Below are positions 18,449-36,285 of a stretch of 64,000 nt of DNA, piece by piece; position 1 is the stretch's first letter; the number at the start of each line of letters is the position of its first letter. A program made the translations under genes and the position numbers. The DNA is taken from positions 370,488 to 434,487 of the forward strand of contig CAVRYE010000012.1 in the NCBI GenBank assembly GCA_963725355.1, given 5' to 3'. Below the pieces are notes generated by a model. That model ran no database searches and had not been told where the DNA came from. It saw nothing but the letters and a program-made list of their open reading frames with translations. Origin of the DNA: an uncultured Acidimicrobiaceae bacterium (GTDB lineage: Bacteria; Actinomycetota; Acidimicrobiia; Acidimicrobiales; Bog-793).

Positions 18449-19252
18449 TCAAGTAGAGCGACGGCGCCGCGTCGGAGAAGGTTCGTTTTCACCGGGACCG
18501 ATGAGCGGCTTCTCCCGTCCGCGGTAGGACTCTCCTTCGATGACGAGCTCCCAGGCGGCGCTTTTCAGACGGTCGACGGCGGACTGGGCGAGGAGCGGAT
18601 CGGCCATGACCGCCAGCCACTCAACAGGGTCCCTGTTCGAGGTGAGCACCGTGGCCGCTTTGTGGTGGCGCTCGACGACGAGCTCGTAGAGATCGGCTGT
18701 CTCGGTCGGATCGAGGGCCTGGAGGGCGAAGTCGTCGAGGATCAAAAGCTCGACCCCGATGAGCTTTCGCATCTCGGCGTCGTAGCTCGCGTCGAGGCGG
18801 GCTGCTCGAAGGCGCTTGTGGAGACGGTCGGCGCGTTCGAAGTGCACGCTGATGCGTCGCCGACATGCGATGTGGCCGAGAGCCGTGGCGATAAACGTCT
18901 TTCCCACTCCGACTGGTCCCAAAATCAAGGCGTTGCGGCCTTGTTCGACAAAACGCAGCGACACGAGCTCAGAGAGCACCGCCCGGTCATAGCTGACCGC
19001 GGCCGTCTCGTCCCACGCCTCGAGATGCATCTGGGGATCGAGATGGGCCGCCCGGGCACGAAGCCCTGCCGAGGCGGCATCGCGGCGCTGCACCTCGTCT
19101 GAGAACAGCTGCTCTAAGAACTCGACGTGGCTGAGCTCGTGACTGCGGGCGAGAGCGAGGCGCTCGGGCAAGGTGTCCAACAAGCGTCCGAGGCGGAGCC
19201 GGCGCATGAGCACCTTGAGCTCTGCCGGCACGCTCGGTGCGGGGGCGGTCAT
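18449..19252 (-). CDS. istB: IS21-family helper ATPase IstB
   Basis: 267 aa. Walker A is LILGPVGVGKTF and Walker B is LLILDDF. It overlaps istA by 4 nt. Confidence 0.9.
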   Translation of the reverse strand: MTAPAPSVPAELKVLMRRLRLGRLLDTLPERLALARSHELSHVEFLEQLFSDEVQRRDAASAGLRARAAHLDPQMHLEAWDETAAVSYDRAVLSELVSLRFVEQGRNALILGPVGVGKTFIATALGHIACRRRISVHFERADRLHKRLRAARLDASYDAEMRKLIGVELLILDDFALQALDPTETADLYELVVERHHKAATVLTSNRDPVEWLAVMADPLLAQSAVDRLKSAAWELVIEGESYRGREKPLIGPGENEPSPTRRRRST

Positions 19253-20802
19253 CTCTTCGCCTGCTTCAGAGAGAACTCAGAAGGATCTCGGGCAAAGCGT
19301 CCCTGCACCACGACCGGCTCGGGCCGGGCGTCGGGCTCGGCGGCTTCCTTGGCGCGCTCCAGCATGCGGCTTATGAGGTTCACGTCGATGGCTTCTGCCT
19401 CAAGGGCTCGCCGACAGGCCGACTCGACCCGGTCCGGGCCCCACTTCTTCACCAGTCCCAAGAGGCGATAGACCTGGCGCATCTTGGTCCAAGGAAGCGG
19501 AGTGTCCAAGATCGCCTTCGCATAGGTGCCGATCGCCTCCCCGTGGCCTTTGGCCATGTGGGCGAGGCGGTCGAGGTCTCTTGTCGCGTAGATCTCCTTC
19601 CCGCTCGGCATGTCGGCCGGATCGGTCGAGCGCCCGCCGGGTGGCTTTCTCGGATGCAACTTCACGAGCTCTCCGCGGAAGTACAGCTTCACGGTCTTTG
19701 AGTCGCGCCTTGCCTTTAGGTGCCTGCCGACGAGCTGGTGGGGGGCCGAGTAGAGGGCCTTGTCCACCTCCACATGGAAGTCGCGGTGCAGCTTCGGCTC
19801 TGACCAGTGGGGGATGTCGAAGGGCTGACCGGGGAGCTGGCCCAAACGAGGGAGCTCCTCGAGACAGAACATCTCCGCCGGGCGGCACTGGGTCGTGCCG
19901 TGGATGCGCATGCCGGCGGTCTTCTTGCACCAGATCTCGGCCCGCTCTCGGCAGTCGGCAAGGTCGACGAAGCTCTCTCCGGCAAAGAAGTTCTTCTGCA
20001 CATAAGAGACGACTCGTTCCACCCTCGGCTTGTCGGTCGGGGTGGCGACGCGAGCGGCGTCGATGACAAAGCCCCTCGATTGCGAGTACTCGAAGAAGGT
20101 GTCGTTGAAGCGGGGAGCGGTGTTCTCGGCCTTTTTGACGATCGAAGACATGTTGTCGGGGATGACGACCGGGAACACCCCGCCGAAGAAAGCCCAGGCG
20201 GCCTCGAAGCCAGAGATGACGTCGTCTGTGGTCTGGCCAAAGGTCGGCCAGACGAACTGATGACGGCTGAACACAGCGGTGAAGATGAGCCCGTGACAGA
20301 CACGGCGCCGCTCGCCGTCAGGGACGAGACCAAGACGTCCGAAGTCCACCTGCAGCTCTATGCCCGGAGGCGGGTCGTCGACACGGACCGTTGTTCTCTT
20401 TCGCCCCGCCCCGCAGCGCTCTGTGGCAAAGCGTGCCAGAGTCCGGTGCGGGACAACGACACCACGGCGGGCAAGGAGGATCCCGATCTTGACGACGGTG
20501 AGGTCCTGTTTCACCCAGGCCTTGATGCGCTCTTCTTCTCCGAGAAGCTTCTCCCAGGCCTCGCCGTGGCCATCTGGACGGTGGGGGCGCACCTTCTCGG
20601 CCACCTGGCCGATCAGCTCGTCGCTGAGCTGGTCCTCGCCACCTTGGCGGTCGAGCCCGAGCTCAACGGCAGCGGAGATGTAACGCCTCGCCGTCTTGCG
20701 GTCGATGCCGACCCCTTGGGCGATGGGGCGTTCGCCTTCACCTAAAAGCCAGCGTCGGAGCGCCTCTTTGATCTGGACCACGCTTACCTCCCTGAACACC
20801 AT
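19249..20802 (-). CDS. istA: IS21-family transposase IstA
   Basis: 517 aa. N-terminal HTH (IAQGVGIDRKTARRY), DDE integrase core (VDFG..., VVIPDNMSS...) and typical length. Confidence 0.9.
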   Translation of the reverse strand: MVFREVSVVQIKEALRRWLLGEGERPIAQGVGIDRKTARRYISAAVELGLDRQGGEDQLSDELIGQVAEKVRPHRPDGHGEAWEKLLGEEERIKAWVKQDLTVVKIGILLARRGVVVPHRTLARFATERCGAGRKRTTVRVDDPPPGIELQVDFGRLGLVPDGERRRVCHGLIFTAVFSRHQFVWPTFGQTTDDVISGFEAAWAFFGGVFPVVIPDNMSSIVKKAENTAPRFNDTFFEYSQSRGFVIDAARVATPTDKPRVERVVSYVQKNFFAGESFVDLADCRERAEIWCKKTAGMRIHGTTQCRPAEMFCLEELPRLGQLPGQPFDIPHWSEPKLHRDFHVEVDKALYSAPHQLVGRHLKARRDSKTVKLYFRGELVKLHPRKPPGGRSTDPADMPSGKEIYATRDLDRLAHMAKGHGEAIGTYAKAILDTPLPWTKMRQVYRLLGLVKKWGPDRVESACRRALEAEAIDVNLISRMLERAKEAAEPDARPEPVVVQGRFARDPSEFSLKQAKR

Positions 20803-20963: not shown

Positions 20964-21139
20964 CGTGCTGCTCAACAGGCCCCAAAATCTCAGCAGATCA
21001 CGTTGTGAATTCGCAGTGCGCTCAAAAGGCGCAGCTAGTTGTCCTCGTTAGCGCAGTCGCCGGGGGAGAAGTAGGTGCCTAGCGCTTTCGAGTATTTGCC
21101 CAGGCTCCCAGAGCGACTTCACCATGCCTTTCTTTATCT

Positions 21140-21600
21140 GCTGGGCCCGCAAAAGGCAGGGTTGTGTCCCTCGAGGACCACGGCCAGCCCCAACCATTCC
21201 TCGCTGGTCAGGTCTCCACGCATCGGGTCGATCAGCCCCTCGCAGTCGTTCGACATCCACGCCACTTGTTCCCGCAAGGTACTCGAGGGAGATGCCAGCG
21301 GCTAAGCGAGCGTTCTGAAGTGCCCTGGCGTCCTTGGTGTCTGCACGAAGGGTGGCTCCAAAGTGAGGTGGTAGTGGTTCGCCATCCTGACGGCGTAACC
21401 GGCGACGAGCACGCTGATGTGAGGGGTCCCCGTTGACTGGTCCAACTGGACCACTAACTGGGGGTCGCCTCAGATGGCTTTCAGCTGAGTCATCTGATGG
21501 GCGTACTTGCGAGAGTCCCCTGTTTTCGCTGCCTGAGCACGTCGCTCCCGGCCCGTGCTGTGGCTCGCTTGTGAGATGACAGATGGTTGTGCAGAGAAAC
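21140..21600 (-). pseudogene. Possible degenerate Y1/HUH (IS200-like or REP-associated tyrosine transposase-like) gene remnant
   Basis: One minus frame reads ...ISVLVAGYAVRMANHYHLTLEPP (compare the family pattern a.vvMpNH.HLL..p), then a TAG at 21302-21304. A shifted frame reads CEGLIDP...EEWLGLAVVLEGHNPAFCG (compare YLL..RYIE.NPVRAG). This is motif-level evidence only. Confidence 0.2.
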
Positions 21601-21630
21601 ACCGAACTGACCTGGTGTCCACTGGCACGG

Positions 21631-22134
21631 TCAACGGCGAGCGGTTCGGCCCCTGGCTGGTCGGCTGACCTCATGGAATTGCAGCCTTAAATCAGTGAGT
21701 CCGTACTGCTCACGGTAATGGTCCTTAATGCGGTAATGGATCGACAACAAGTGACTGTGCTGAGTCCCTTCGCGAATCACCGTGCCATCGGGCAAGACGT
21801 AGTTGGTGACCTTCCTATCGTAAAACCATTCGACTCGGACATCGGTAACCACCAAGAGCAGATGGTAGTGCGGGTTGCGAGAGTCCCACACCTGCCACCC
21901 CACCGGCACCGCGCCGGTCACTTCAATGTCGACTGCACACTCCCGCCTGGCGAAAGCTCCCGATAGCCGGTGCCCGCGATCACGGGGTGACGAACTCAGC
22001 AGGCGCCCTGAGGTCTCTGGGTTTTCGACGTTGTAGCTGTCGAAGCTGACTGAGCACCGCGCCCTCGAGTCGATCCTCTCCCATGTCGTTGCAGGAGGCT
22101 GACCATGATCGGAAAGCGGGATTTGACCATGCAA
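21631..22134 (-). CDS. Hypothetical protein (167 aa) containing an HUH-like NPHYHLLLVV motif
   Basis: The ORF has a plausible amino-acid composition but visibly weaker GC3 bias than its neighbours. I recognise no family. It lies directly downstream of pilO on the same strand. Confidence 0.35.
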   Translation of the reverse strand: MHGQIPLSDHGQPPATTWERIDSRARCSVSFDSYNVENPETSGRLLSSSPRDRGHRLSGAFARRECAVDIEVTGAVPVGWQVWDSRNPHYHLLLVVTDVRVEWFYDRKVTNYVLPDGTVIREGTQHSHLLSIHYRIKDHYREQYGLTDLRLQFHEVSRPARGRTARR

Positions 22135-22188: not shown

Positions 22189-22803
22189 TCAGGCCGTGGG
22201 CGTCGGGGTGACGTAGGTCGTGTAGGCGTCGGCAGACACGCTCAAGGTGTACAGCTGTCCATCACCATTGGCGAGGATGTTGGCGTTCCCGGCGTTGCTC
22301 GGGCCGAGGCTGACGCTGGAGATCGTCATGAGCCTTTTCATCGAGTAGAAGCCTGAGAGGAAGGCGAAGATGTTGCTGTGGACTCCCGAAACGGAAAGTG
22401 TGACCGGTATCGTGGAGAGCCCAGCCGTGCTTGTAGGGGTCGGTTCATCCGACGGGGTGACCGTGAGCAGACTGCAGCCGGTCTGGTTTGCAAGGTTGTT
22501 GAGTGAATCCACGATGCCAGGCGGGTCTTCGGTCGGCGGGATGGCCGTCGTCACAAGCCTCAGGTAAGGGAGCTCTTTCAAGACGAGCTTTTTCTCGGCC
22601 TTTAGAGTCGTCAGCTCGAGGTTGAGCTGGGACACGTTCGCCTGGTCAGAGGCGACCTGCTGCTGTACCGAGGCCAGCTTGTTGGCCTCAGGGGTCATCC
22701 ATGCGAACCACCACACGAGGAGGAGAACTACCACCCCACCAGTGACGATCAGCACGACCTTCGACTTCAGCAGGTCAAAGTTCAAGTTCTTGAGTGCGTT
22801 CAT
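22189..22803 (-). CDS. pilO: Type IV pilus assembly protein PilO-like
   Basis: ATG 22803 follows AAGGTG. MNALKNLNFDLLKSK is followed by a single TM segment, a coiled coil (ASVQQQVASDQANVSQLNLELTTLKAEKK) and a C-terminal alpha/beta domain. It is adjacent to pilM/N. Confidence 0.65.
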   Translation of the reverse strand: MNALKNLNFDLLKSKVVLIVTGGVVVLLLVWWFAWMTPEANKLASVQQQVASDQANVSQLNLELTTLKAEKKLVLKELPYLRLVTTAIPPTEDPPGIVDSLNNLANQTGCSLLTVTPSDEPTPTSTAGLSTIPVTLSVSGVHSNIFAFLSGFYSMKRLMTISSVSLGPSNAGNANILANGDGQLYTLSVSADAYTTYVTPTPTA

Positions 22804-24496
22804 GCTGGCACCTTGAATTCGTTCCGCGAATGGAAGTGATTTCACCTGTGACTCCGATTGTGGCGGAGTAGGTGACGTTCGTCGTGTTGGCTTTCGTGAG
22901 GCCGCTGAACCCATTGACGGTCAGCTTGCCGGACCCCGATACGGAGTAGTACCAGTTGCGGAAGTACGTGTAGCCAGCCACGGTTGCGAGCGAGATGCTC
23001 ACGGTTGCAATCTGGGTCTGTGCCGGGGACAGTGCCGCTGGCGCGGGGTGAGTTGCTGTGCCGACAGTTGCGGCCTGGGGCGGATCGGCGCTGGCGGAGA
23101 AGGTGAGAATACTGCCGCCACTCGGAGTGACATGGCGCAGGGCACCTAGGACGCCGGGCCAGTAAACCTCTTGGTTCACAATGGGATTGCTGATCGCCGC
23201 CAGGTCAAGGATCTCGGAATGCTCCTGCTGGACCTTGTCGTATCTCGGGATCTGCAAGTTCAGGGCCCCGATTTGGCTCGTGAGACTTGAGACCTGGTTC
23301 TCGGCGTTGTGCACCTTCAAAAAGCGCATCGCGCCCAGCCCCACCATGACGAGGACAAGGAGCACTGCCACCAGCATGATGGCACGCTCGAGCTGCCTGC
23401 GCTTGCGTCCGAGGATCACCTCTGGCGGGAGCAGGTCTAGTTCCTTGACGTCCTTCAACCCGGGGAGGGCAAGGCCAACTACGACGGCGACGGATGGATC
23501 GATCCGGGTGATCTCGTGGTCGGGCAGCCGCAAGCGTGAGCAGTCGATACGGCTGAGCGCACTGCCAGAGAACACTGGGAGACGAAGTTGCTGCTGCAGC
23601 TGCTCGGCGAAACCGTATAAGCGTGACCCGCCACCCGAGATCACGACACGGCGCACAGGGCTGCGCCCGGTCAAGGTCGCATAGTAGTCAATCGAGCTGC
23701 GCAGCTCGCCTATGAGCGACATGGATGCGTCGCGGGCAGCGCCGAGCGCAACATTGACGTGAGGCGCCCCGCCATCCAGATTCTGTTTGAGGCTCTCAGC
23801 ATCGGCCAACGGCAAGTCGAGCGCACCGGCGATGGCGGCGGTAACGGCATCACCGCCCTCGGCGATAGTCCTAACAAAGTGGGGAATGCCGTTCTCGTGG
23901 ACTGCCACCTTTGTCAGATCCGCACCGATCGAAACGATCGCTTCGGGACCGTTGGTAGCCGATTCCGGATCGAAGAGAGACCGGATCATCGCTGAAGACG
24001 TAGGTTCGACGCTGACAGGGGTGAGACCAGCCGCGGTCGTGATCTGGACTAGAGGGTCTACTAGGTCGCGGTGCGCCGCCGCTACAAGTACCCTGCGCTC
24101 CGGCATCCCGTTGGCGCCCACCGTCTCTTCCAGCGGACGTGCTGAGATGAGCGCCTTGTCGATGGCGAACGGGATGACGTCAAGAGCCTGCAACCGGACG
24201 GCGGAGTCGATCTCCGAGTCGGGCAACAGCGGCATTTCGAGTTCGCGTGTGATCGCTCTGAGTCCCGCGATCCCGAGGTGGACGTCCCCAGCAGCGAAAC
24301 CGCCTTCTTTCATACAGCGTTCTAGCGCTGTACGAACCACAGCGTGCTCAAGGATCACGCCGTCGATGACGGCCCGTGGGGGCAGGGCGACTTGGCCCAG
24401 CCGGATGAGTTCGGGGCGACCGTGCCCCGCGACCACCTCAGCCATGCGCACCGCGGTGCTGCTGATCTCGACACTCACACGTCGCGTAACCATCAC
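22775..24496 (-). CDS. pilM: PilM-PilN fusion protein (actin-like ATPase fold + bitopic PilN-like domain)
   Basis: aa 1-345 are PilM-like (VSVEISSTAVRMAEV..., ISGGGSRL). aa 352-392 carry a PilN-type N-terminus DLLPPEV..RKRR plus a TM segment (IMLVAVLLVLVMVGLGAM), followed by a coiled coil and a periplasmic-type domain. RBS AGGAG lies upstream. Confidence 0.8.
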   Translation of the reverse strand: MMVTRRVSVEISSTAVRMAEVVAGHGRPELIRLGQVALPPRAVIDGVILEHAVVRTALERCMKEGGFAAGDVHLGIAGLRAITRELEMPLLPDSEIDSAVRLQALDVIPFAIDKALISARPLEETVGANGMPERRVLVAAAHRDLVDPLVQITTAAGLTPVSVEPTSSAMIRSLFDPESATNGPEAIVSIGADLTKVAVHENGIPHFVRTIAEGGDAVTAAIAGALDLPLADAESLKQNLDGGAPHVNVALGAARDASMSLIGELRSSIDYYATLTGRSPVRRVVISGGGSRLYGFAEQLQQQLRLPVFSGSALSRIDCSRLRLPDHEITRIDPSVAVVVGLALPGLKDVKELDLLPPEVILGRKRRQLERAIMLVAVLLVLVMVGLGAMRFLKVHNAENQVSSLTSQIGALNLQIPRYDKVQQEHSEILDLAAISNPIVNQEVYWPGVLGALRHVTPSGGSILTFSASADPPQAATVGTATHPAPAALSPAQTQIATVSISLATVAGYTYFRNWYYSVSGSGKLTVNGFSGLTKANTTNVTYSATIGVTGEITSIRGTNSRCQHERTQELEL

Positions 24497-24659: not shown

Positions 24660-24729
24660 CTTCTTGAGCCTCAAGAAGCACTGGCTTGAAGCAAGGTCGC
24701 TCGACTATTTCCGCCATGGGACCTTGCTT
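24660..24729 (-). promoter_or_regulatory. Two stem-loops in the pilC-pilM intergenic region
   Basis: The first is a 10-bp perfect stem, AAGCAAGGTC (24689-24698) pairing with GACCTTGCTT (24720-24729), abutting the pilC stop codon. The second is a 9-bp-arm palindrome CTTCTTGAG-C-CTCAAGAAG at 24660-24678. Confidence 0.4.
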
Positions 24730-25964
24730 TAGGCTCCCGGCTGCTGCAGGAGCTTGACGTAGTCGAACATCGGCAGATAAAGGCTGATGACGATAGCCCC
24801 GATGCACACGCCCATGAACAGAATAATCAGGGGCTCGAGAATCGACGTCAGGCTATCCACAGTCGCGTTGACCTCGTTGTCGTAGAAGGTCGACACCTTG
24901 TCGAGCATGTCGTCGAGCGCGCCCGATTCCTCACCGGTCTCGATCATTTGCGTCAACATGATTGGCATGACGGGATACTGAGCGAGGATCGCAGACAGGT
25001 TCTTGCCTTCACGAACTCCGTCTTGGGCGCCCACGAGCGCATCGGCGACGACCTGGTTCCCTGCGTTAGCGGCAACTATGTCCAGCGCCTCAATGACGGG
25101 AACGCCGGCGGAGAGGAGCGAGGAGAAGGTGCTACAGAAGCGAGCCAGCGCGACTTTGTGCGACAGGGGGCCGAACACGGGCGGTCGGAGCTTTAGTGCA
25201 TCCCACTTTCTTCGGCCGCTCGGTGTGGCGATCCAGCGCCGCATGATGACCACTATGGCAACAATCGTGGCTATGACCACGAGTAGCCAAACACTTGCCA
25301 CGACATTCGAGATCCCTATCACGATTCGGGTGGGCAGGGGTAGGGTGCCGTTCAGCGTCGTGAAGAGCTTCTTGAAGATCGGGACGATGAATATCATCAT
25401 CGCAGTGACGATGACTATGACCGCACAAAAGACGATGCTTGGATAGGCCATAGCCGAGCGAACCTTCTGACGGAGTTCGACCTGCTTCTCAAGTGTTGAT
25501 GAGAGCTTGAGCAGGACTGAGTCCAACTGTCCGCCGACCTCCCCGGCGCGGACCATGGCTATGTATAGCGGCGGAAACACCTTTGGGAGCTTCTCGAGGG
25601 AGGTCGACAGTGAAGAGCCCTGCTCGACCTCTTGACGGACTTGGAGCATCGCCTCGCGTAGCGGCTTGGACTCGATCTGATCCGCGAGTACTCCGAGTGC
25701 ACGGACGAGGGTCAGTCCAGCGGCAACCATGGTCGCTAGCTGACGACTCATGAGTGCCACGTCTTTGAGGGCGACCCGGTCGGTGAGACCGGGTATGTTG
25801 ATCTCGCGCTTGAGGTTCAGGGAAACAGGTTTGATCTCGACTGGGGCGTAGCCCATGTCTCTGAGCCGAGCCGCGACCAAAGGCACACTGTCGGCCTCTA
25901 GCTGACCTTTGACGAGTCTGCCATCAGCGTCGCGAACCTTGTAGTCAAAGGTCGTCGTGGGCAT
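24729..25964 (-). CDS. pilC: Type IV pilus platform protein PilC (GspF family)
   Basis: 411 aa with a duplicated T2SS-F domain and three TM regions. The sequence runs from MPTTTFDYKVRDADGRLVKGQLEA to the end of the second domain. Confidence 0.9.
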   Translation of the reverse strand: MPTTTFDYKVRDADGRLVKGQLEADSVPLVAARLRDMGYAPVEIKPVSLNLKREINIPGLTDRVALKDVALMSRQLATMVAAGLTLVRALGVLADQIESKPLREAMLQVRQEVEQGSSLSTSLEKLPKVFPPLYIAMVRAGEVGGQLDSVLLKLSSTLEKQVELRQKVRSAMAYPSIVFCAVIVIVTAMMIFIVPIFKKLFTTLNGTLPLPTRIVIGISNVVASVWLLVVIATIVAIVVIMRRWIATPSGRRKWDALKLRPPVFGPLSHKVALARFCSTFSSLLSAGVPVIEALDIVAANAGNQVVADALVGAQDGVREGKNLSAILAQYPVMPIMLTQMIETGEESGALDDMLDKVSTFYDNEVNATVDSLTSILEPLIILFMGVCIGAIVISLYLPMFDYVKLLQQPGA

Positions 25965-25995: not shown

Positions 25996-27813
25996 TCATC
26001 GCTGCCTCAGGTAGTCGCGAAGCTCACTGGGATCGTGGCATCGGTCGAAGGCCATTGCTTCAGTGATGGTGCCAGCTTGGACTGCTTTGGCCAGACCCTG
26101 GTCCATGGTCTGCATGCCCTGTGCCGCGCCGGTCTGGATGAGCGAGTAGATCTGGTGCGTCTTCGCACTGCGGATGAGATTACGGATCGCGGGGTTGCAG
26201 ATCATCACCTCTGCAACGGGGGTTCGGCCGAAGCCGCTTGCACTCAGGACAAGTTGCTGTGTTATGACGGCTTCCAGGGATGCGGCGAGCTGGATACGAA
26301 TTTGGCCCTGCTGGCCACTCGGGAAGACGTCGATGATACGGTCGATTGTCTGGGGTGCGTCTTGGGTGTGCAAGGTCGCGAACACGAGGTGGCCGGTCTC
26401 GGCTGCCGTAAGAGCCGTGGCGATGGTCTCGTTGTCGCGCATCTCACCTATGAGGATGACGTCGGGGTCCTGACGGAGGACATGGCGAAGGGCCTCAGCA
26501 AAGGACTTAGTGTCCGAACCGACCTCGCGCTGGTTGACAATAGAACGGCTGTGGCTGTGGAGGAACTCGATCGGGTCCTCGACGGTAACGATATGCAGCG
26601 GTTTCGACTGGTTGATGATATTGACCAACGAGGCAAGAGTTGTCGACTTGCCGGACCCGGTGGGACCTGTGACCAGTACTAGTCCGCGGCGGAGCTCCGC
26701 AAGTGTTGGAACAACTGCGGGTAGGCCGAGAGTGTCGAAGGGAGGGATCTCGTGGGGGATTGCCCTCATCACCGTGCCGATGGAGCCCCGCTGCTGGAAG
26801 AGATTGACGCGGAAACGTCCTACGCCCATGATCGTGTGGGCAGTGTCGAGCTCATGTTCTGCCTCGAAGCGCTCACGCAGACCCTGGGTGAGGATCCGGT
26901 AAACCATCTCTCGAATCTGTTCGTTGTCGAGGCGCGAGAGGCCCTCGATGGGCCGCAAGGAACCGTCGATTCGAATAGCAGGCGGCAGCTGATTGGCCAG
27001 GTGAAGGTCAGATGCGCCATTTCGCACCGCATAGGTGAGCAGTTCGTCGATGTCGAGACTGCCGTCGGGATTGAGACTTGGTACGAATGGCTCCATATCC
27101 GGCATGCCGCCCGATCCACCAGGCAGATCTGTGTGCCTGACATCGGCGGTATAGTCGGCCTGCCAGTCGGCCGCGTCGTATCCTGGGCCTCCCGCCCCGT
27201 TGGAGCGGATGTCGTGAGCGGTAGGCGCACCCGACATGACGGGCTGATGAACCTGCATCGGTAGGTTCATCACCGGGCTTGATGACGGCGTCGCTTGTGA
27301 GGAATCGGCTGGCGCGGGCGCGTAGGCCTGGGTACTTACGGTGGAAGCCGCTTGGGCTTTCGATGTTGCGTCCTCGGGCGATGAAAGGCGCGGGTAGACA
27401 GCGTTCATCAGCTGCTCCAGGGCCACCGGGTCAGCCAGGACGCAGCCGGAGACCTCTATTCCCAGGAATGCCGATACCTCACGCTGTTGCGAGATGTCGA
27501 GAGGCTCAGCGCAGGCAAGAGTGAGGCCCTCGGTCTCGAGCTTGTACCCGATCACCATGAGCTCGCGGGCGAAGAGTTCGGGTACCAATCGGAAGGCCTC
27601 GCCCATGGGGCGGTTGGCCGAGATGTCGACAGAAGGCACTCCGGAGATGCGCGAGAGCTCGGCTAGCGACGAGGCCGGTTCCACCAGCCCTCGGGCGGCC
27701 AGGACCGCTGCGACGGGGCGGCCGGCAGAGGCCGCTTCTGAGAGAGTGGCAACGGCGATGTCTCCAGGAATTGTCCCGCGCTGACGAATGTCTCGGCGAG
27801 GCGCTTTGACCAT
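25996..27813 (-). CDS. PilT-type retraction ATPase core fused to an N-terminal PilB/GspE-type (T2SSE_N-like) domain and a low-complexity linker
   Basis: aa 251-605 have Walker A GPTGSGKSTT, DPDVILIGEMRD, the His box ETGHLVFATLHT and the PilT signature AIRNLIRSAK...GMQTMDQ. aa 1-140 resemble a GSPII_E N-domain (LVPELFARELMVIGYKLE..LTLACAEPLD...). aa 141-250 are rich in Ala, Pro, Ser and Gln. Confidence 0.8.
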   Translation of the reverse strand: MVKAPRRDIRQRGTIPGDIAVATLSEAASAGRPVAAVLAARGLVEPASSLAELSRISGVPSVDISANRPMGEAFRLVPELFARELMVIGYKLETEGLTLACAEPLDISQQREVSAFLGIEVSGCVLADPVALEQLMNAVYPRLSSPEDATSKAQAASTVSTQAYAPAPADSSQATPSSSPVMNLPMQVHQPVMSGAPTAHDIRSNGAGGPGYDAADWQADYTADVRHTDLPGGSGGMPDMEPFVPSLNPDGSLDIDELLTYAVRNGASDLHLANQLPPAIRIDGSLRPIEGLSRLDNEQIREMVYRILTQGLRERFEAEHELDTAHTIMGVGRFRVNLFQQRGSIGTVMRAIPHEIPPFDTLGLPAVVPTLAELRRGLVLVTGPTGSGKSTTLASLVNIINQSKPLHIVTVEDPIEFLHSHSRSIVNQREVGSDTKSFAEALRHVLRQDPDVILIGEMRDNETIATALTAAETGHLVFATLHTQDAPQTIDRIIDVFPSGQQGQIRIQLAASLEAVITQQLVLSASGFGRTPVAEVMICNPAIRNLIRSAKTHQIYSLIQTGAAQGMQTMDQGLAKAVQAGTITEAMAFDRCHDPSELRDYLRQR

Positions 27814-27838
27814 TCGGTTGGCGACCTACGATCGGGAC

Positions 27839-30284
27839 TCATACGACCACCCTCAGTATCTCTTCGAGGCTCGTTATGCCGAGCGCCGCTTTGCGCAATC
27901 CGTCGTGCCGCAATGGAACCATCCCCTGTTCGAGGGCTAGGTGTTGTATGTCGTCGTTCGAAGCGTGGGCGATGATTGCCCGCTCGAGTTCTTCGTCAAT
28001 AAGTAGGAGTTCCTGAAGCGCAATTCGTCCCCGGTAGCCGGTCCGGCTGCATGCTTGGCACCCGACGGCCCTCCGGAAGCGGACCTTCCCGTTTGGCGGT
28101 TCGTCTTCCTCTGTGAACCCGATCAGCTCGAGGTCCTCGACTGTCGGGGAATAGTCCTCCAGGCAGTTCTCGCACAGTTGCCTGGTAAGGCGCTGAGCCA
28201 GAACGCAGTCGAGTGCTGATCCGACGAGGAACGCCTCGACCCCCATTTCCACCAGGCGCATGGGCGTGCCGGCGGCATCGTTGGTGTGGAGGCTCGAGAG
28301 CACAAGGTGGCCGGTAAGGGCGGCTTCGATCGCGATCACAGCTGTCTCGCGGTCACGGATCTCGCCGACGAGGACGACGTCGGGGTCGGAGCGGAGGATA
28401 GAGCGAAGGGCATTGGCGAAGTTAAGACCGGCCTTGGGATTGACCTGGACTTGGCTGACGCCGCGTAGTTGGTACTCGACCGGATCCTCGACTGTGATCA
28501 GGTTTCGTTCTGGGGAGTTGAGAGCGTTCAAGGTCGCGTACAGCGTCGTCGACTTGCCGGACCCGGTTGGTCCCGTCACAAGGATCGTCCCGTACGCCTT
28601 GCGATAAGCGACCTCGTAACGCTTTTCGACTGTCGGCAGGAACCCAAGCTGGGAAAGCTGTAGGGAGGCGCTCGACTTGTCGAGCACGCGAAGCACGATC
28701 TTCTCGCCGTGCACCGTCGGCAGGGTCGCGACGCGGAGGTCGATCTCCCGTCGTCCAGCGGTGAGGGTGATGCGCCCGTCCTGGGGGACGCGGTGCTCGG
28801 CAATGTCAAGGCTCGCCATCACCTTGAGACGTGTCGTCACGCCGCCTTGGATCGCCTTCGGAGAGCGGGTGACCTCGTGGAGCACCCCGTCAATTTCGAA
28901 AGCGGATGCGCAGGTCGTCGGAGGTGGGCTCGATGTGGATGTCCGAGGCGCGCTCTTGGAGGGCCTGGCGGAGGATCAAGTTGACGTACTTGACGATCGG
29001 GGCGTCCTCGACGACGGCGTGGAGGTCGGTGAGCTCGGTGATCTTCGTCTCGTCGCCGGCAGAGGTCTGCGACGCCGCCGTCTGGGCGGCGAGCGTCGTC
29101 TCCCGGTCGTGGCGGTAGACGCGCGACAGGTACTCCGCTATCTGGCCTGCGCTGCAGACCACGATCTGAATGTCGGTGCCGAGCAGTGTTCGCAGGTCGT
29201 CGACCGCGAAGACGTCGGACGGGTTCGCCATGCCGATGATCGGCGTGTCGCCCCGGTAGCCGAGAGCCAGCACGCGGTGGCGACGAGCGAGGGACTCCGG
29301 GATCAGCTTTGTCGCCTCAGGGTCGAGCGGCTGCTCGTTGAGGTCGACAAACTCCATACCGGCCTCGGCGGCCGAGGCACGGATGAGGTCCTCTTCTGAG
29401 ACGAGACCGAGCTCGCTCAAGATGTCGCCGAGCGACCGCCCCGTAGCCGCTTGCTCGCGCAGGGCTGCTTCCATCTCCTCGCGCGTGACCTGGCCGGAGC
29501 TCATGAGCAGCTCGGCGAGGCCCGGCGTCGACTTCGCGACCTCAGCAGGAGCCTTCGCCTTGCCCGCCGTGGTCGCCTCTAGGAGCTTGGAGGCGGCGAG
29601 GAGCGCCTCGGCCTCTTCGTCGGCAGGCGGAGTGAGCGCGGTGGGCTCAGCTGCCTCTGCCTCTTCGGGGACGAGATGCAGGGTGGGCTCGCTCGGCTGC
29701 TTCTCGGCTGCGTGCCGGGAGCCGCCTGCCCTCGTGGACGGGACAGTGTCAGGAGGAGGTGCGGGTGGCTCCGGTACTGGAGGACGCGCCGGTGGCTCTG
29801 GAACTACCGGCCCAGTCGAGTCCGTTGTAGGCGCCTCCGCCGAAGGGGCCGTGGCAGTGGACTGTGACTTCGCTGCGCCGTCGGTCGAGCCTCGCAAACC
29901 ACGCCCGTTGGGGGCGGGCGCCGACGTCTCGGCCCGCGTGTACATGCGATCTATGTAGGCGTCGATCTGGCTCTCGCAAGCGACGACGGCATGGATGTCG
30001 CGACCGATAGCAGTCCTCAGGTCGTCCATCGCCATGACATTGTCGGGTCGCGCGACGGCCACAACCGGTGTTCCGAACTTCCAACCGACGGCCAGCGCGT
30101 GGTGGCGGCGGGAGGCCTGTTGGGGCAACAAGGAGGTCGCGGCCGCATTGAGCGGGTAGCGCTCGAGGTCGACGTACTCGAGCCCGACTTCCTTCGCGAG
30201 CGCCCGCGCCTCAGCAACCTCCGCCTTGGAAGGTGATACTTGCCGTCGCCCGGCGGTCGTCGTGGTCTGTTCGGTGGTACTCAT
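27839..30284 (-). pseudogene. pilB: Type IV pilus extension ATPase PilB (GspE family), interrupted by a 1-nt frameshift at 28894-28896
   Basis: ORF 28890..30284 ends ...ASDIHIEPTSDDLRIRFRN*. ORF 27839..28885 begins (IDG)VLHEV...RLKVMASLDIAEHRVPQDGRI. The minus strand reads CGA AAT TGA CGG GGT G, and removing one A restores R-I-D-G-V-L. Walker A is GPTGSGKSTT and a C-terminal tetra-Cys motif is present. Confidence 0.85.
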
Positions 30285-30544
30285 CCCCTATTACCATCGG
30301 GCGCACGGGGAGGTTTCTTTATTCGATCATTTCCGACAGCGCTCAACATGCGCCTCCCTCCCTCCCCGATGAGCAGCGCTTCAGTGCGCTGAGCGTTCAA
30401 ACTCGCGCGGTACGTGTCGATGATAGCTCGGATAGCGTACGCCAGGCGTCGCCCGGACGAGCCGGGCAGGAGGGAAATCGTGCGTGTGACCTCAGCTCTC
30501 GTGCTCGGGCGGATCGGCATCGAGGAGAGGGTCGCCAATCTCTG

Positions 30545-31318
30545 ATGTCGCCGATAGCCGAAGTGGTGGCCGGCGTCATCGGGCTGGTAATGGGCTCGTT
30601 TGTCGGCGTCGTCGTTGACAGGATCCCCCGCAAGGAGTCGATCGTGGCGCCTCCTTCACGCTGCGATGCTTGCGGTGCGCCCATCGCGCCATACGACAAC
30701 ATCCCCGTTGTCTCTTATCTGATCCTGCGGGGCAGCTGCCGGCGTTGCGGAGCGCACATCCCGGCCCGGGATGCCTTGTTGGAGCTCGGTACGGGAGTCC
30801 TTTTCGTCCTGCTCGCCTGGCGGCTCGGCTCAATATGGGAGCTGCCCGCCTACTGCTTCTTGGCGGCGAGCCTGGTAGCGATATCCGCCATCGACATCGA
30901 GCACCTGCGGATACCCTCGCCGATCGTGTACGCCACAGCCGGACTGGGGGTGCCGCTCCTCGTTCTCGCCTCGGCGGGGACCCACCGCTGGTCCGCCCTC
31001 TTGGCAGCCGTCATCTGCGGCGCGGTCGCCTTTGCTGCCTTCTTCACGCTGTTCTACGCCGTGCCGAAAGGCATTGGATTCGGCGACGTCCGGCTTGCCG
31101 GATTGTGTGGCGGATTCGTCGGTTGGATCGGCTACCGCGAGGCGTTCGTCGCCTTCCTCGTCAGCTTCGTCGTAGCTGGGGTGCCCGCTGCCATATTGCT
31201 AGCCCTGCACAAGGTGCAACGGCGGACCCAGATCCCCTTCGGGCCCTTCATCGCGGCCGGGACCCTTATAACGGTTCTGGTTGGGCACCCGCTCGTGCAC
31301 GCCTGGGCGAGCCTCTGA
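30545..31318 (+). CDS. pilD: Prepilin peptidase (A24 family) PilD
   Basis: ATG 30545 lies in ORF 30233..31318. N-terminal CDACG...CRRCG domain, multiple TM segments, and the catalytic-Asp context GFGDVRLAG. Confidence 0.85.
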   Translation: MSPIAEVVAGVIGLVMGSFVGVVVDRIPRKESIVAPPSRCDACGAPIAPYDNIPVVSYLILRGSCRRCGAHIPARDALLELGTGVLFVLLAWRLGSIWELPAYCFLAASLVAISAIDIEHLRIPSPIVYATAGLGVPLLVLASAGTHRWSALLAAVICGAVAFAAFFTLFYAVPKGIGFGDVRLAGLCGGFVGWIGYREAFVAFLVSFVVAGVPAAILLALHKVQRRTQIPFGPFIAAGTLITVLVGHPLVHAWASL

Positions 31319-31324
31319 GCTCTG

Positions 31325-32452
31325 TCAGAACCTGGCAGCAGAGCCGACGAGACCGCGCTTTTGCAGAGCCACGCGCAAGTCGTGCGGGTTCGAAGCGGCC
31401 TGGGTCGCCGAACGCAGGTCTATGGTGCCCTGCTCAAGCAGCGCCACGAGAGCCTGGTCGAAGGTCTGCATGCCGTAGTACTCGCCTTCGCGGATGATGG
31501 AGGTTATGTCGCCCCCCTGGCCGGGCTCAATGATGCACTGCTGAATCCGGCCATTGGTGATCATGATCTCCATGGCGGGCACTCTTCCCGAGCCGTCTGC
31601 AGTGGGAACGAGTCGCTGGCAAAGCGTGCCCTTCAACGCTCCGGCGAGGCTCAGACGAGCCTGGCGCTGCTGAGCCGCCGGGAAGAAGTCGACGATCCGG
31701 TTGACGGTCTCGACGGCGTCGATGGTGTGGAGCGTGGCGAACACGAGGTGTCCGGTCTCAGCTGCGCTGAGGGCGGTCTCCACTGTCTCGACATCTCGCA
31801 TCTCACCGACGAGGATCACGTCGGGGTCCTCGCGAAGCGCCGAACGTAGTGCGACAAGGAAGCTAGAGGTGTCGAAGCCGACTTCACGTTGGCTCACCGC
31901 GGAGAGCTCATCGCGGTGCAAGACCTCTATCGGGTCCTCGATCGTGACGATGTGGCACTCGCGGGTGTGGTTGATGTGGTCGATCATGGCGGCGAGGGTG
32001 GTCGTCTTCCCACATCCCGTGGGGCCGGTGACAAGGATGAGACCTCGCTGCTCGTCAGCTAGGCGACGGACCGCCTCGGGCAGGTTCAGCTCGCCGAAGG
32101 AGCGGGCATGGGAGCGGACCAGACGGAATACCATGCCTATCGTGGAGCGCTGTCGGTAGGCGTTCACACGGAAGCGTCCGAGGTCAGGAATCGAGTACGC
32201 GAAGTCGCCCTCATTGGTCGTGTCAAAGTGTTCCCAAGTCCGTTGTTGCATAATTTCCTTGGCGATCCCCACCATGTCTTCGGCTTTGATGACAGGTGAA
32301 TCATTGATTCGTGTCAGCTCACCGTTGATCCGCATCCTTGGTGGGGAACCCACCTTCAAGTGAAGATCGGAACCTTCTGCCGCGGCCAGTCGGCGGAGTA
32401 ATGCGTCGAGTTCTGAGCGCTCCATACACGTAGCCTCGCGCATCTCACGCAC
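31325..32452 (-). CDS. pilT: Twitching-motility ATPase PilT
   Basis: 375 aa. GSDLHLKVGSPPRMRINGEL, Walker A GPTGCGKTTT, DPDVILVGEMRD, ETGHLVFATLHT. An alternative start at ATG 32425 (MERSELD) is possible. Confidence 0.85.
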   Translation of the reverse strand: MREMREATCMERSELDALLRRLAAAEGSDLHLKVGSPPRMRINGELTRINDSPVIKAEDMVGIAKEIMQQRTWEHFDTTNEGDFAYSIPDLGRFRVNAYRQRSTIGMVFRLVRSHARSFGELNLPEAVRRLADEQRGLILVTGPTGCGKTTTLAAMIDHINHTRECHIVTIEDPIEVLHRDELSAVSQREVGFDTSSFLVALRSALREDPDVILVGEMRDVETVETALSAAETGHLVFATLHTIDAVETVNRIVDFFPAAQQRQARLSLAGALKGTLCQRLVPTADGSGRVPAMEIMITNGRIQQCIIEPGQGGDITSIIREGEYYGMQTFDQALVALLEQGTIDLRSATQAASNPHDLRVALQKRGLVGSAARF

Positions 32453-32556: not shown

Positions 32557-32590
32557 TCGTCCACAGGCTGTGGACGAAGCCTGTGGACAG
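32557..32590. promoter_or_regulatory. Palindromic operator-like element made of three DnaA-box-like 9-mers upstream of dnaE
   Basis: TCGTCCACA-G-G-C-TGTGGACGA has perfect 10-bp arms (32557-32577). A third copy, TGTGGACAG, is at 32582-32590. Each is 8/9 to the high-GC DnaA box TTGTCCACA. Confidence 0.3.
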
Positions 32591-35500
32591 GGAGTGGGCG
32601 AGGGTGGTCGAGGCTAGCGAGAGCACACGGAAGAACGAGGAATCGTTCGTCCACTTGCACACCCATACCGAGTACTCAATGCTCGACGGGGCGGCCCGGA
32701 TCGGGGATCTGGTCCAAGCTGCAGTTGCAGACGGCCAGCCCGCGCTTGCGATCACCGACCACGGCAACATGTACGGGGTCCTCGACTTCTACAAGGAGTG
32801 CCGCGAGCGGGGGATCACGCCCATCATCGGTACCGAGGCCTACATGGCCGCCCAGTCCCGCCTTGAGCGGCCCGTGCGGCGCGGCCGCATCGACGACACG
32901 GGCGGCGAGGGCGATAAAGGCGAGAAGCTCTACTACCACTTGACCGTCCTTGCGGAGACCACCCAGGGCTACCGCAACCTCATCAAGCTCTCCTCGGCCG
33001 CTTACCTCGAGGGCTACTACTACAAGCCCGCGTGTCGACTGGGAGCTGCTCGAGCGCCATCACGAAGGCCTTATCGCCACGACCGGGTGCCTTGGCGGGG
33101 TCGTCGCCCAAGCGCTGCTCGCGGAGGACTTCGACTCTGCGCTGAGCCTCGCCGGACGCCTCCAGGACATCTTTGGCAAGGAGAACCTCTTCGTCGAGCT
33201 GCAGGATCACGGCATCGGGGCGCAGAAGACCACCAATCCCAGCCTCATTCGCATCGCCCGGGCCCTCGACGCGCCGCTGCTAGCCACCAACGACAGCCAT
33301 TACTGCAGGCGTGAGGACGCCGTCGCCCATGACGCACTGTTGTGCGTCCAGACCGGGGCCACCATCCACGATCCGAAGCGGTTCAAGTTCGAGGGCGAGG
33401 AGCATTACCTAAAAAGTGCTCGCGAGATGCGCCGGCTGTTCGCGGAGGTGCCCGCTGCCTGCGACAACACCCTTTGGGTGGCAGAGAGGGCAACCGTCGA
33501 GCTAGAGCTCGGCAAGCCGGCGTTGCCCCAGTTCCCTGTGCCGGAAGCCTTCCAGAAGCAGAGCTACGAGGAGTCAGCCGCCAGCTACCTCGCCCATCTG
33601 ACCTACGAGGGCGCCGCGGCCCGCTACGGCTCACCGATACCGCCCGAGGTGGCCGACCGGCTCGATTTCGAGCTGAGGGTCATTTCCGAGATGGGTTTCG
33701 CGGCCTACTTCCTCGTCGTGTGGGACATCATCCGCTACGCGAGGGAGGCCGGGATCAGGGTTGGGCCGGGCCGCGGGTCAGCAGCCGGGTGCTGCGTGGC
33801 CTACTGCCTGCGCATCGTCGACCTCGACCCGATCCGTTACGACCTGCTTTTCGAGCGCTTCTTGAACCCGGGCCGAAAGCAAATGCCCGACATCGACATG
33901 GACTTCGACGAGCGGCGCCGGGGCGAGATGATCCGCTACGTCGCGGAGCGCTACGGAGCCGATCACGTCGCTCAGATCGTCACGTTCTCGACGATAAAGG
34001 CCCGGGCGGCAGTTCGCGATGGCGCTCGGGTGCTGGGCCTTCCCTACGCCCTCGGCGACCGGATCGCCAAGGCAATGCCACCGCTCGTAATGGGCCGTGA
34101 CACGCCCTTGCGGGCCTGCTTCGAGCGCGTGGAAGGCCACGAGGACGGTTTCATGGCTGCCGCCGACCTTCGCGAGATGTACGAGCAGGAGCCGGACGCG
34201 AAGCTCGTCATCGACGTGGCGAGAGGCCTCGAGGGGCTCCGGCGCCAAGACGGCATCCACGCTGCCGCTGTCGTCATCACCCACGAGCCGCTTACCGAGT
34301 ACCTGCCGGTGCAACGCAAGCCCGAGCCGGGGGCCGACCCGAGCGACGCCCCGATCGTCACCCAGTACGAGATGCACGGGGTGGAAGAGCTGGGTCTGTT
34401 GAAGATGGACTTCTTGGGGCTGCGCAACCTTTCTGTCATCGAGGTGGCCCTCGACCTCATCGAGCAGACAACACAGTCGCGTCCTGACATCGACGCCGTC
34501 GCCCTTGACGACGAGGCGACCTTCGAGATGCTGCGGCGGGGCGACTCGATCGGGGTCTTCCAGCTCGAGGGCGCCGCCATGCGCTCGACGCTGCGCTCGC
34601 TCGCCCCGACGAGCTTCGACGACGTCGCCGCCCTCGTCGCCTTGTACCGCCCAGGCCCGATGGCGGCCAACATGCACCGGGACTACCCGGACCTCAAGAA
34701 CGGCCGCAAGCCGGTGACCTACATCCATCCGGAGATGGAAGCAATCCTCGGGGACACCTACGGCCTCATGCTCTACCAGGAGTCAGTCATGCGGGTAGCC
34801 CAGCGGTTCTCTGGCTACTCGCTCGAGGAAGCCGACAACCTGCGCAAGGCATGCGGCAAGAAGAACCGCGCTCTGATCGCTGCCGAGCGGGTGAAGTTCA
34901 TCGCGGGCTGTGTCACCCAAGGCTACGACGAGGCCCTCGGTACCCAGCTTTTCGACATCATCGAGCCCTTCGCCGACTACGCCTTTAACAAGTCCCACTC
35001 CTATGGGTATGGTCTCGTCGCTTATCAGACGGCCTGGCTGAAGGCGAACCACCCCGTCGAGTACCTCGCCGCCCTCTTGTCGTCTGTCAAGGGGGACAAA
35101 GACAAGACCGCCGTCTACCTGTCCGAGTGCCGCACGCTCGGCATCGAGGTCAGGGTGCCGGATGTGAACGCGTCATCCTCCAACTTCACCCCGATCAGAC
35201 CGGCGCCGGGCAGCGATCCGGCAGATGGGCGTGGTGTGATCATCTTCGGCCTCTCCGCGGTACGAAACGTTGGGGAGGCCATCGTCGAGCACATCGTGGT
35301 GGCTCGCGAGGCGGGAGGTCCTTTCACCGACTTCTACGACTTCTGCAGCCGAGTCGACCCGAGCGCGCTCAACAAAAGGGCCGTCGAGTCGCTCGTCAAA
35401 GCGGGTGCCTTCGACTCGCTCGGCCATCCCCGAAAAGGGCTCTGCCTGGCCTTCGAGGGCATCATCGAGCGGGCGCTCGTCCGCCGGCGCGAGACAGAGC

Positions 35501-36285
35501 AAGGCATCGCCACCCTCTTTTCCATCCTCGACGAGGAGGCGGGCGGCGAAGCCGGCCGGGGAGCCTCGCCGGGCAGCTTTGACGGGACCTGGGTAGCGGT
35601 TCCGGATCTCGAGTTCGATAAGGGCGAGCGGCTGGCCTTCGAGAAGGAGATGCTCGGCCTGTACGTGAGCGACCACCCGCTCATGGGCCTCGAACAGTCA
35701 CTGCGCGACGCCACCGACGTGACGATCCGCGACCTGCTCGACTCGGCTGTGCCGCCGGAGGAGGCCGGCGTTGCCTCGAGCGGCCCGGGAGAGCTCGCCG
35801 AGAGCTTCAGCGTCACGACCGGGGGCGTCGTGACCGCTCTCTCGAGGCGCTACACCCGCCGGGGCGAGGTCATGGCGACCTTTGTGCTTGAAGACCTCGA
35901 AGCTGCCATCGACGTGATGGTCTTCCCGAAGACCATGCTCGAGTTCGGGGCCCTCCTCGAACAGGACGCCATCGTCTCTGTGAAGGGCAGGCTCGACCTC
36001 AGAGAGGACCAACCGAAGCTCATATGCAGGGAGATCCGTCGCCTCAAGCTACAGACTCCCGGTTCTGACCCTCCTGTCGAGGTCGTGCTGCCGTTGAACC
36101 GGCTCACCGATTCGCTTGTGCGCCAGATCCGCGACCTTGTGAGCGAGCACCCCGGCACGTGTGCTGTCCACCTGCGCGTGGGCGAGAAAGTGCTGAGGCT
36201 CCCGCCCCAGTTCAACGTGAATCCGAGGGGCGGCCTCGTAGGTGCTCTGAAGGAGCTGCTCGGTACATCTGCGGTCGCCAACTGA
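32583..36285 (+). pseudogene. dnaE: DNA polymerase III alpha subunit DnaE (DnaE1 type), interrupted by a 1-nt frameshift at about 33027-33030
   Basis: ORF 32583..33314 carries the PHP N-terminus (SFVHLHTHTEYSMLDGA...LEGYYYKP). ORF 32950..36285 continues with PRVDWELLERHHEGLIATTGC... through to the C-terminus. The sequence AAG CCC GCG TGT reads K-P-R-V-D if one C is removed. The true start may be GTG 32604. Confidence 0.9.

Follow-up and report, generated by a model that had tools for sequence, protein, structure and literature searches.

Can a retraction ATPase of the type IV pilus carry the N-terminal domain that is otherwise typical of extension ATPases, and what would such a domain do there? 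The question is raised by a gene in a 64,000-nucleotide stretch of DNA from an uncultured Acidimicrobiaceae bacterium (assembly GCA_963725355.1, contig CAVRYE010000012.1, positions 370,488 to 434,487; hereafter the window, whose own numbering is used throughout). A minus-strand open reading frame (ORF) of 605 aa at 25996..27813, present as first listed, had been described in a sequence-only reading as a PilT core joined through a low-complexity linker to a PilB/GspE-type N-terminal domain, and this architecture was borne out by matches to PF05157 and TIGR01420 and by predicted local distance difference test (pLDDT) values below 50 in the linker. The gene for the MshEN-PilT fusion is genuine and is conserved among Acidimicrobiales from soil and peat. 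As a variant of a familiar machine it is modest, though so far undescribed; canonical PilT proteins measure about 345-375 aa and are devoid of an N1D/GSPII domain, whereas the fusion is about 615 aa long and contains PF05157.

The C-terminal part of the protein (25996..27063, minus strand) is a PilT-family ATPase core, comprising the PilT N-terminal domain and the C-terminal ATPase domain. The NCBIfam model TIGR01420 (pilT_fam) matches residues 255-597, which cover positions 2-343 of its 343, and the score of 480.7 bits exceeds the cutoff of 319.1. Pfam T2SSE (PF00437) matches residues 255-559, while the NCBIfam models for PilB (TIGR02538, 173.7 vs. 675.65) and GspE (TIGR02533, 164.6 vs. 630.25) stay far below their cutoffs. 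The best-scoring solved structure is Geobacter PilT4 (6ojx, 387 bits), to which the core aligns over its whole length (query 4-351 on 24-371), followed by the Aquifex and Pseudomonas PilT proteins (350-375 bits), PilU (9n32, 287 bits) and PilB (about 104 bits). The hallmarks of PilT that had been noted from the sequence are all present: alignment to Geobacter PilT4 places the Walker A motif GPTGSGKST at 26641..26667, the Asp box EDPIEF at 26563..26580, the Walker B region DPDVILIGEMRD at 26434..26469 and the His box TGHLVFATLHT at 26365..26397 (all minus strand), and the PilT signature AIRNLIRE of 6ojx aligns with AIRNLIRS (26167..26190, minus strand; ORF residues 542-549). The Zn-binding tetracysteine of PilB-type ATPases was not found in the core, which has two isolated cysteines only (539, 592), whereas the adjacent PilB reads CENC...CQAC. 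In its catalytic boxes, its end-to-end similarity and its lack of the tetracysteine the core thus resembles the characterized PilT proteins of Geobacter metallireducens (PilT4, 6OJX), Aquifex aeolicus (2EWV) and Pseudomonas aeruginosa (3JVV), and the gene product is, judged by its sequence, a bona fide PilT-type retraction ATPase. It differs from these proteins in about 255 additional N-terminal residues, formed by the GSPII/MshEN domain and a disordered linker and absent from every characterized PilT, and in its coexistence with a short paralog in which the AIRNLIRE signature is missing.

The 5′ end of the gene required correction. In a tblastn comparison with the window, the 615-aa relative P0001 (99% identical, 99.5% in placement) aligns over residues 1-25 to 27842..27768 in one frame and over residues 23-615 to 27777..25999 in the next, and the change of frame therefore indicates a 1-nt indel at about 27775-27780. 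It falls in a G-run within AGCGCGGGACA (27775..27780, minus strand) and cuts the listed ORF short at its 5′ end. The first 13 or so residues of that ORF (MVKAPRRDIRQRG) are an artifact and match nothing in the homolog alignment, where the N-terminus of the relatives reads MSPDRRSPTEWSKRLAETFVS(T/A)GTIPGD, intact relatives continuing from ...FVS(T/A)G into TIPGD...; the residues that the frameshift conceals include the beginning of helix 1 of the N-domain (WSKRLAETFVS). The start taken over in the sequence-only reading was consequently wrong, and comparison with the relatives places the true one at the ATG at 27842, inside an ATGA overlap (27839..27842, minus strand) in which the TGA stop of pilB lies within the start of pilT. 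After repair of the indel the complete gene spans 25996..27842 on the minus strand and encodes about 615 aa, of which the listed ORF is the in-frame 3′ part. The same ATGA junction was seen in 28/28 related loci inspected. A Shine-Dalgarno-like GAGGGTGG stretch stands just 5′ of the pilT ATG, a GAGGGTGG-like stretch precedes ATGA in the related loci as well, and the overlap implies translational coupling of MshEN-pilT to pilB.

Further frameshifts are evident in the window. The pilB gene is broken into two ORFs, one of 464 aa for the N-terminal part with both MshEN domains and one of 348 aa for the ATPase; the break at 28890-28896 comes from one extra A in the A-run 28894-28896 of CGAAATTGAC, where intact relatives read RIRFRIDGVLHEV and the intact PilB relative P0234 reads DLRIRFRIDGVLHEV. 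The gene for the DNA polymerase III alpha subunit, dnaE (32583-36285, plus strand), is frameshifted inside its PHP domain, at around 33000-33050, with model positions 1-106 in ORF 32583-33314 and positions 103-164 together with the remainder in ORF 32950-36285. The pil genes of loci L002, L006, L007, L010 and L038, from metagenome-assembled genomes (MAGs) of the MFD series, likewise fall into several tblastn pieces with the same indel pattern. Since the essential dnaE is split too and these long-read MAG relatives show comparable broken matches, the indels in pilT, pilB and dnaE are most likely assembly errors and not biology, and true pseudogenization was rejected as the default reading. Gene calls from assemblies of the MFD type will under-report the full-length proteins.

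The N-terminal domain (27379..27842, minus strand) consists of a four-helix subdomain followed by an alpha/beta subdomain and was recognized as an MshEN/GSPII (N1D) domain by Pfam, AlphaFold2 and Foldseek. Profile searches for a GspE-type N-domain had been set beforehand as the refuting test, and they detected the domain: Pfam MshEN (PF05157, formerly T2SSE_N) matches residues 58-142 with E = 5.9e-11 and 42.6 bits (gathering score 23.1), and a profile of the N-domain run against the PDB matched Thermus thermophilus PilF (6f8l), Vibrio cholerae MshE 7-116 (5htl) and Geobacter PilB (5tsg). AlphaFold2 modeled the N-domain alone with a pLDDT of 91.5 and a predicted template modeling (TM) score of 0.85, as four helices and then an alpha/beta unit, and the same fold was predicted within the full protein. 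In Foldseek this model matched PilF GSPII-A (9g1w, TM 0.72), MshE-N with bound cyclic di-GMP (c-di-GMP; 5htl, TM 0.62-0.67), and also PilF GSPII-B, Xanthomonas PilB-N in its PilZ complex (7lko) and XpsE-N. With the MshEN/GSPII domains of extension ATPases (MshE 5HTL, PilF GSPII-A 9G1W and GSPII-B 8PDK, PilB-N 7LKO, XpsE-N 2D28) it thus shares the two-subdomain fold (TM 0.6-0.72), the register of two 24-residue motifs with a 5-residue spacer, the N-terminal position and the flexible connection to the ATPase; unlike them it sits on a PilT core and carries the family-specific motifs RPMGEAF, IGY and AVYPRL, which are invariant across species. Conservation is uneven between its two halves, with 42/80 columns at least 90% conserved in the alpha/beta half and 15/59 in the four-helix half. 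The Pro/Ala/Ser-rich, low-complexity linker of about 105 aa (27064..27378, minus strand) is predicted to be disordered, with pLDDT below 50 over residues 152-247 of P0001 in the full-length AlphaFold2 model. It is variable among homologs (mean column identity 0.26, zero conserved columns, length about 35-130 aa), and in the model it is a flexible tether between the N-domain and the PilT core.

The sequence-only reading had called this architecture uncommon. Within the lineage it is the rule, found in 39 species-level genomes and in at least 17 clusters at 50% identity, while among named carriers no other phylum appears, and in that respect the description holds. Among the best database relatives, more than 100 are full-length proteins of 600-640 aa with PF05157+PF00437, and those with a taxon name belong to the Acidimicrobiales. 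A scan with the N-domain profile of one genome per GTDB species gave 39 loci, all in MAGs labeled Acidimicrobiales, Acidimicrobiaceae or Actinomycetota, many of which bear bog, palsa or SPRUCE isolate names; every match of this genome scan was a MAG, and no cultured carrier was found. Wherever the flank suffices, the gene order is identical, namely short pilT, pilD (on the opposite strand), pilB, MshEN-pilT, pilC, pilM and pilO. The ratio of non-synonymous to synonymous substitution rates (dN/dS) of the N-domain lies at 0.05-0.14 (window vs. six relatives). An exhaustive N-domain profile search covering 1.84 billion cluster representatives returned the clusters mentioned above, in which a related N-domain stands ahead of a PilT-type core and the named members are Acidimicrobiales. 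Where the other strong matches have a recognizable ATPase core, it is of the PilB type, and many of these proteins contain several MshEN stretches; others are very long proteins of about 1,030-1,325 aa. A second homolog search started from the distant fusion P0162 and yielded mostly tandem PilT-PilT proteins of about 720 aa, together with two added named fusion carriers, both Acidimicrobiales/Actinomycetota. Among the homolog and genome-scan matches no named fusion carrier outside the Actinomycetota was seen. Between the N-domain and the second MshEN domain of the neighboring PilB, identity is only 27%, and a recent duplication of that neighbor was rejected for this reason; since the at least 17 clusters are also diverged from each other, the sequences mark the fusion as ancient and not as a recent copy.

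The tandem proteins from the P0162 search are a different elaboration of the retraction motor. P0274, P0308 and about 100 others are "PilT/PilU family" proteins of about 720-750 aa, from MAGs of Polyangiales, Myxococcota, Armatimonadota, Eremiobacterota and Victivallales, and the two that were read (P0274 and P0308) are fusions of two PilT-type cores with one Walker A motif each. PilU and the tandem PilT-PilT proteins are likewise duplicated or elaborated PilT-family motors, but they add or fuse ATPase cores, whereas MshEN-PilT adds a non-catalytic N1D.

What the N-domain does on a retraction motor admits several explanations. The sequence-only reading had raised second-messenger binding. As a sensor, the N-domain would bind c-di-GMP or a related dinucleotide in its four-helix subdomain and switch retraction on or off, mirroring MshE, PilB and PilF. 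The c-di-GMP receptor of MshEN is defined by the 24-residue motif RLGxxLLxxGLLxxxxLxxxLxxQ, which occurs twice with a 5-residue spacer in between and is also given with alternatives as RLGxx(L)(V/I)xxG(I/F)(L/V)xxxxLxxxLxxQ (PMC5013675). The repaired N-domain, in which motif I reads RLAETFVSTGTIPGDIAVATLSEA, the spacer ASAGR and motif II PVAAVLAARGLVEPASSLAELSRI, keeps the 24+5+24 register exactly, and its four-helix bundle is modeled with high confidence, both of which would suit a sensor. Of the key residues, however, it retains 3/6 in motif I and 2/6 in motif II (5/12), with the substitutions G11A, L25A, Q32A, R38P, G40A, L54S and Q61I, so that both glycines are replaced by alanine and both terminal glutamines are lost; in MshE, the exchanges G11L and G40I eliminate binding, and similar changes led to its loss in XpsE (PMC5013675). 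The best structural match, PilF GSPII-A, in which one motif is near-perfect and the other degenerate, showed no c-di-GMP binding in isothermal titration calorimetry, although PilF GSPII-B binds tightly in spite of its off-consensus motifs (PMC11731258). All 16/16 PilT-fused N-domains scored are degenerate to some degree, even if some subfamilies keep most key residues, the best being P0167 with 5/6 and 4/6 and both glycines kept. The putative nucleotide-binding half is moreover the less conserved one. A scan for GGDEF motifs gave no match within the 64-kb window, a result limited to the window. Because both motifs are degenerate, as in PilF GSPII-A and XpsE, and the nearest fold is non-binding, canonical c-di-GMP sensing by this protein appears unlikely; second-messenger binding is accordingly disfavored, and we consider a sensor role in the broader sense quite unlikely as well.

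Alternatively, the N-domain could contact, instead of the stator, the extension motor or a cofactor shared with it (the MshEN region of PilB, or a PilZ/FimX-like protein), coordinate or inhibit PilB and time the switch between extension and retraction. Such a contact would fit the constant adjacency and translational coupling of pilB and MshEN-pilT, the homology of the N-domain to the second MshEN of PilB, the packing of PilF GSPII domains against each other in rings, and the binding of PilZ by the Xanthomonas PilB N-domain, whose structure 7lko is among the fold matches (PMC11656802). Against it, the conserved cluster showed no gene for PilZ or FimX, and heteromeric GSPII contacts between different ATPases were not found in the literature consulted on these domains. 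Adjacency of pilB and pilT also occurs with an ordinary PilT, as in Myxococcus and Geobacter, and on balance this explanation seems rather unlikely. It is very unlikely that the domain is a retained but functionally minor appendage, useful for instance for solubility or hexamer stability and without a specific partner: while deletion of GSPII-A in PilF leaves transformation unaffected (PMC11731258), the low dN/dS speaks for strong purifying selection, RPMGEAF and IGY are invariant across species, and the N-domain is kept in 39/39 species beside a short paralog that does without it. Vanishingly improbable, finally, is an artifact, be it a mis-assembled or mis-called pilB fragment joined to pilT or an untranslated upstream region with a start near residue 250. 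Assembly indels do affect MshEN-pilT itself, pilB and dnaE, but the same continuous ORF recurs in 39 independent genome assemblies and thousands of metagenome proteins, and the N-domain is too distant from pilB to be a fragment of it. The internal start, which the sequence-only reading had itself placed near residues 240-250 as a possible objection, was rejected by the conserved ATGA start codon (28/28) and the low dN/dS; the upstream region is translated.

We give about an even chance to the explanation, the best supported of those considered, that the N-domain is a GSPII fold without canonical c-di-GMP binding, acting as a docking module that would leash PilT to the machine, probably to PilM. 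The PilT of the Acidimicrobiales has permanently gained an N-terminal MshEN/GSPII (N1D) module otherwise typical of PilB/GspE, and in this scenario the module would, through the long linker, keep the PilT hexamer leashed on the cytoplasmic side of the machine. The PilM ring would be the most probable docking partner by analogy with GspE-N1/GspL and with the proposed contact between PilB N1D and PilM. In the type II secretion system, GspE-N1 docks on the actin-like cytoplasmic domain of GspL (2BH1, 4PHT), and the PilB N1D-PilM contact has been deduced from the same structures (4PHT and 2BH1; review PMC11656802). Besides the evidence against c-di-GMP binding, two observations were counted for docking: the cluster encodes PilM, a homolog of the cytoplasmic domain of GspL, and the alpha/beta half, which weakly resembles EpsE-N1, is the more conserved half. 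Tethered in this way, the retraction motor might compete with PilB at the PilC socket or quickly replace it there, with the short AIRNLIRE-less paralog as an accessory motor. The platform-tethered motor suggested in the sequence-only reading is thus a plausible reading.

Several points weigh against docking on PilM and should be kept in mind. The Foldseek match of the alpha/beta half to the GspL-binding EpsE-N1 in 2bh1/4pht is weak (64 columns, E 0.35), the contact between our N-domain and PilM is one that we infer, and in the type II secretion system GspE N1 serves the extension-type motor. In part, moreover, the alpha/beta half is better conserved because it contains motifs that determine the fold and recur in all GSPII domains. 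The carriers are without exception MAGs of uncultured organisms. A few fused subfamilies such as P0167 are nearer to the c-di-GMP consensus, so that nucleotide binding may occur in parts of the family. PilF GSPII-B demonstrates that off-consensus domains can still bind (PMC11731258). It is possible, if doubtful, that both motors of the Acidimicrobiales are leashed by their N1D to the same PilM stator ring, in which case extension and retraction would be set by competition for the PilC socket and not by the exchange of freely diffusing hexamers.

The gene neighborhood provides the remaining components of such a machine. Directly upstream of MshEN-pilT lies pilB (27839..30284, minus strand), the extension ATPase, in which two MshEN domains are joined to a core with the Zn-binding CxxC...CxxC (Pfam, ORF list). 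Its second MshEN (PilB residues about 250-305, within 28890-30284, minus strand) is off the c-di-GMP consensus too, with R to G and G to A in motif I (GLAELLMSSGQVTREEMEAALREQ) and L to S and Q to E in motif II (SLGDILSELGLVSEEDLIRASAAE); judged from these motifs, c-di-GMP may exert little or no control over the extension motor here as well. Directly downstream, pilC (24729..25964, minus strand) encodes the platform protein with two copies of Pfam T2SSF, followed by pilM (22775..24496, minus strand; PilM_2, 5.8e-34) and pilO (22189..22914, minus strand; PilO, 7.4e-10). The actin-like PilM has 573 aa, with the actin-like domain at 9-344 and then a C-terminal extension of about 230 residues with a hydrophobic stretch, which is possibly a PilM-PilN fusion as in monoderm systems. 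On the plus strand, pilD (30233..31318; A24_N_bact and Peptidase_A24) encodes the prepilin peptidase, given here as the longest ORF, with the real start probably further in. About 1.4 kb beyond pilO lies an IS21-family element (18449-20802, minus strand) with the transposase istA (19249-20802) and the ATPase istB (18449-19252), and neither of the two small ORFs that separate pilO from this element (21048-22134) was recognized as a pilin gene.

The short PilT-family paralog (31325..32452, minus strand; TIGR01420, 455 bits) had been taken as a canonical PilT. This holds for its length of 375 aa but not for its signature, since GRIQQCIIE stands in the place of AIRNLIRE. It is 47.6% identical to the core of the long PilT, among solved structures it is closest to T. 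thermophilus PilT (5fl3) rather than to the classical PilT proteins, and all related loci whose upstream flank reaches far enough have it upstream of pilD. The long MshEN-PilT looks like the primary, cluster-encoded PilT because of its position in the order pilB-pilT-pilC, its retained AIRNLIRS and its top scores to characterized PilT proteins; in Myxococcus and Geobacter, too, pilT is located between pilB and pilC. The short paralog, which like PilU is without AIRNLIRE, may be a PilU-like accessory motor.

In terms of classification, the sequences assign the core to the PilT family and the N-domain to the MshEN/GSPII fold, outside its c-di-GMP-binding subset. In the survey of MshEN the partner domains were REC, HD-GYP, CheA, CheX, cyclase and kinase, with PilT not among them (PMC5013675), and no description of a PilT with a GSPII/MshEN domain was found in the literature on MshEN, on type IV pili of Acidimicrobiia or on N-terminal extensions of PilT. 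The proteins themselves are public, but only under the names "PilT/PilU family type 4a pilus ATPase" or "twitching motility protein PilT". The Pfam architecture PF05157+PF00437 covers two functionally opposite motors, so that on this basis the fusion is indistinguishable from PilB, which matters for the automatic annotation of pilB and pilT in metagenomes.

The N-terminal GSPII/N1D domain has been held to distinguish extension from retraction ATPases (2024 review, PMC11656802). A cluster-encoded PilT of the Acidimicrobiales that carries an N1D under strong purifying selection is a conserved counter-example to this extension-only rule, and suggests that the N1D serves docking to the machine rather than extension as such. 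The fusion bears on two questions, the way in which PilT finds and engages the pilus machine and the switching between extension and retraction motors, and it offers a defined construct, the N-domain 1-155 with or without the linker, for binding to PilM, PilC and PilB. If both motors indeed compete for the PilC socket from a shared stator ring, the N1D would be a generic stator-docking module, neither extension-specific nor c-di-GMP-specific, and the Acidimicrobiales would be a naturally occurring case in which to study the recruitment of PilT.

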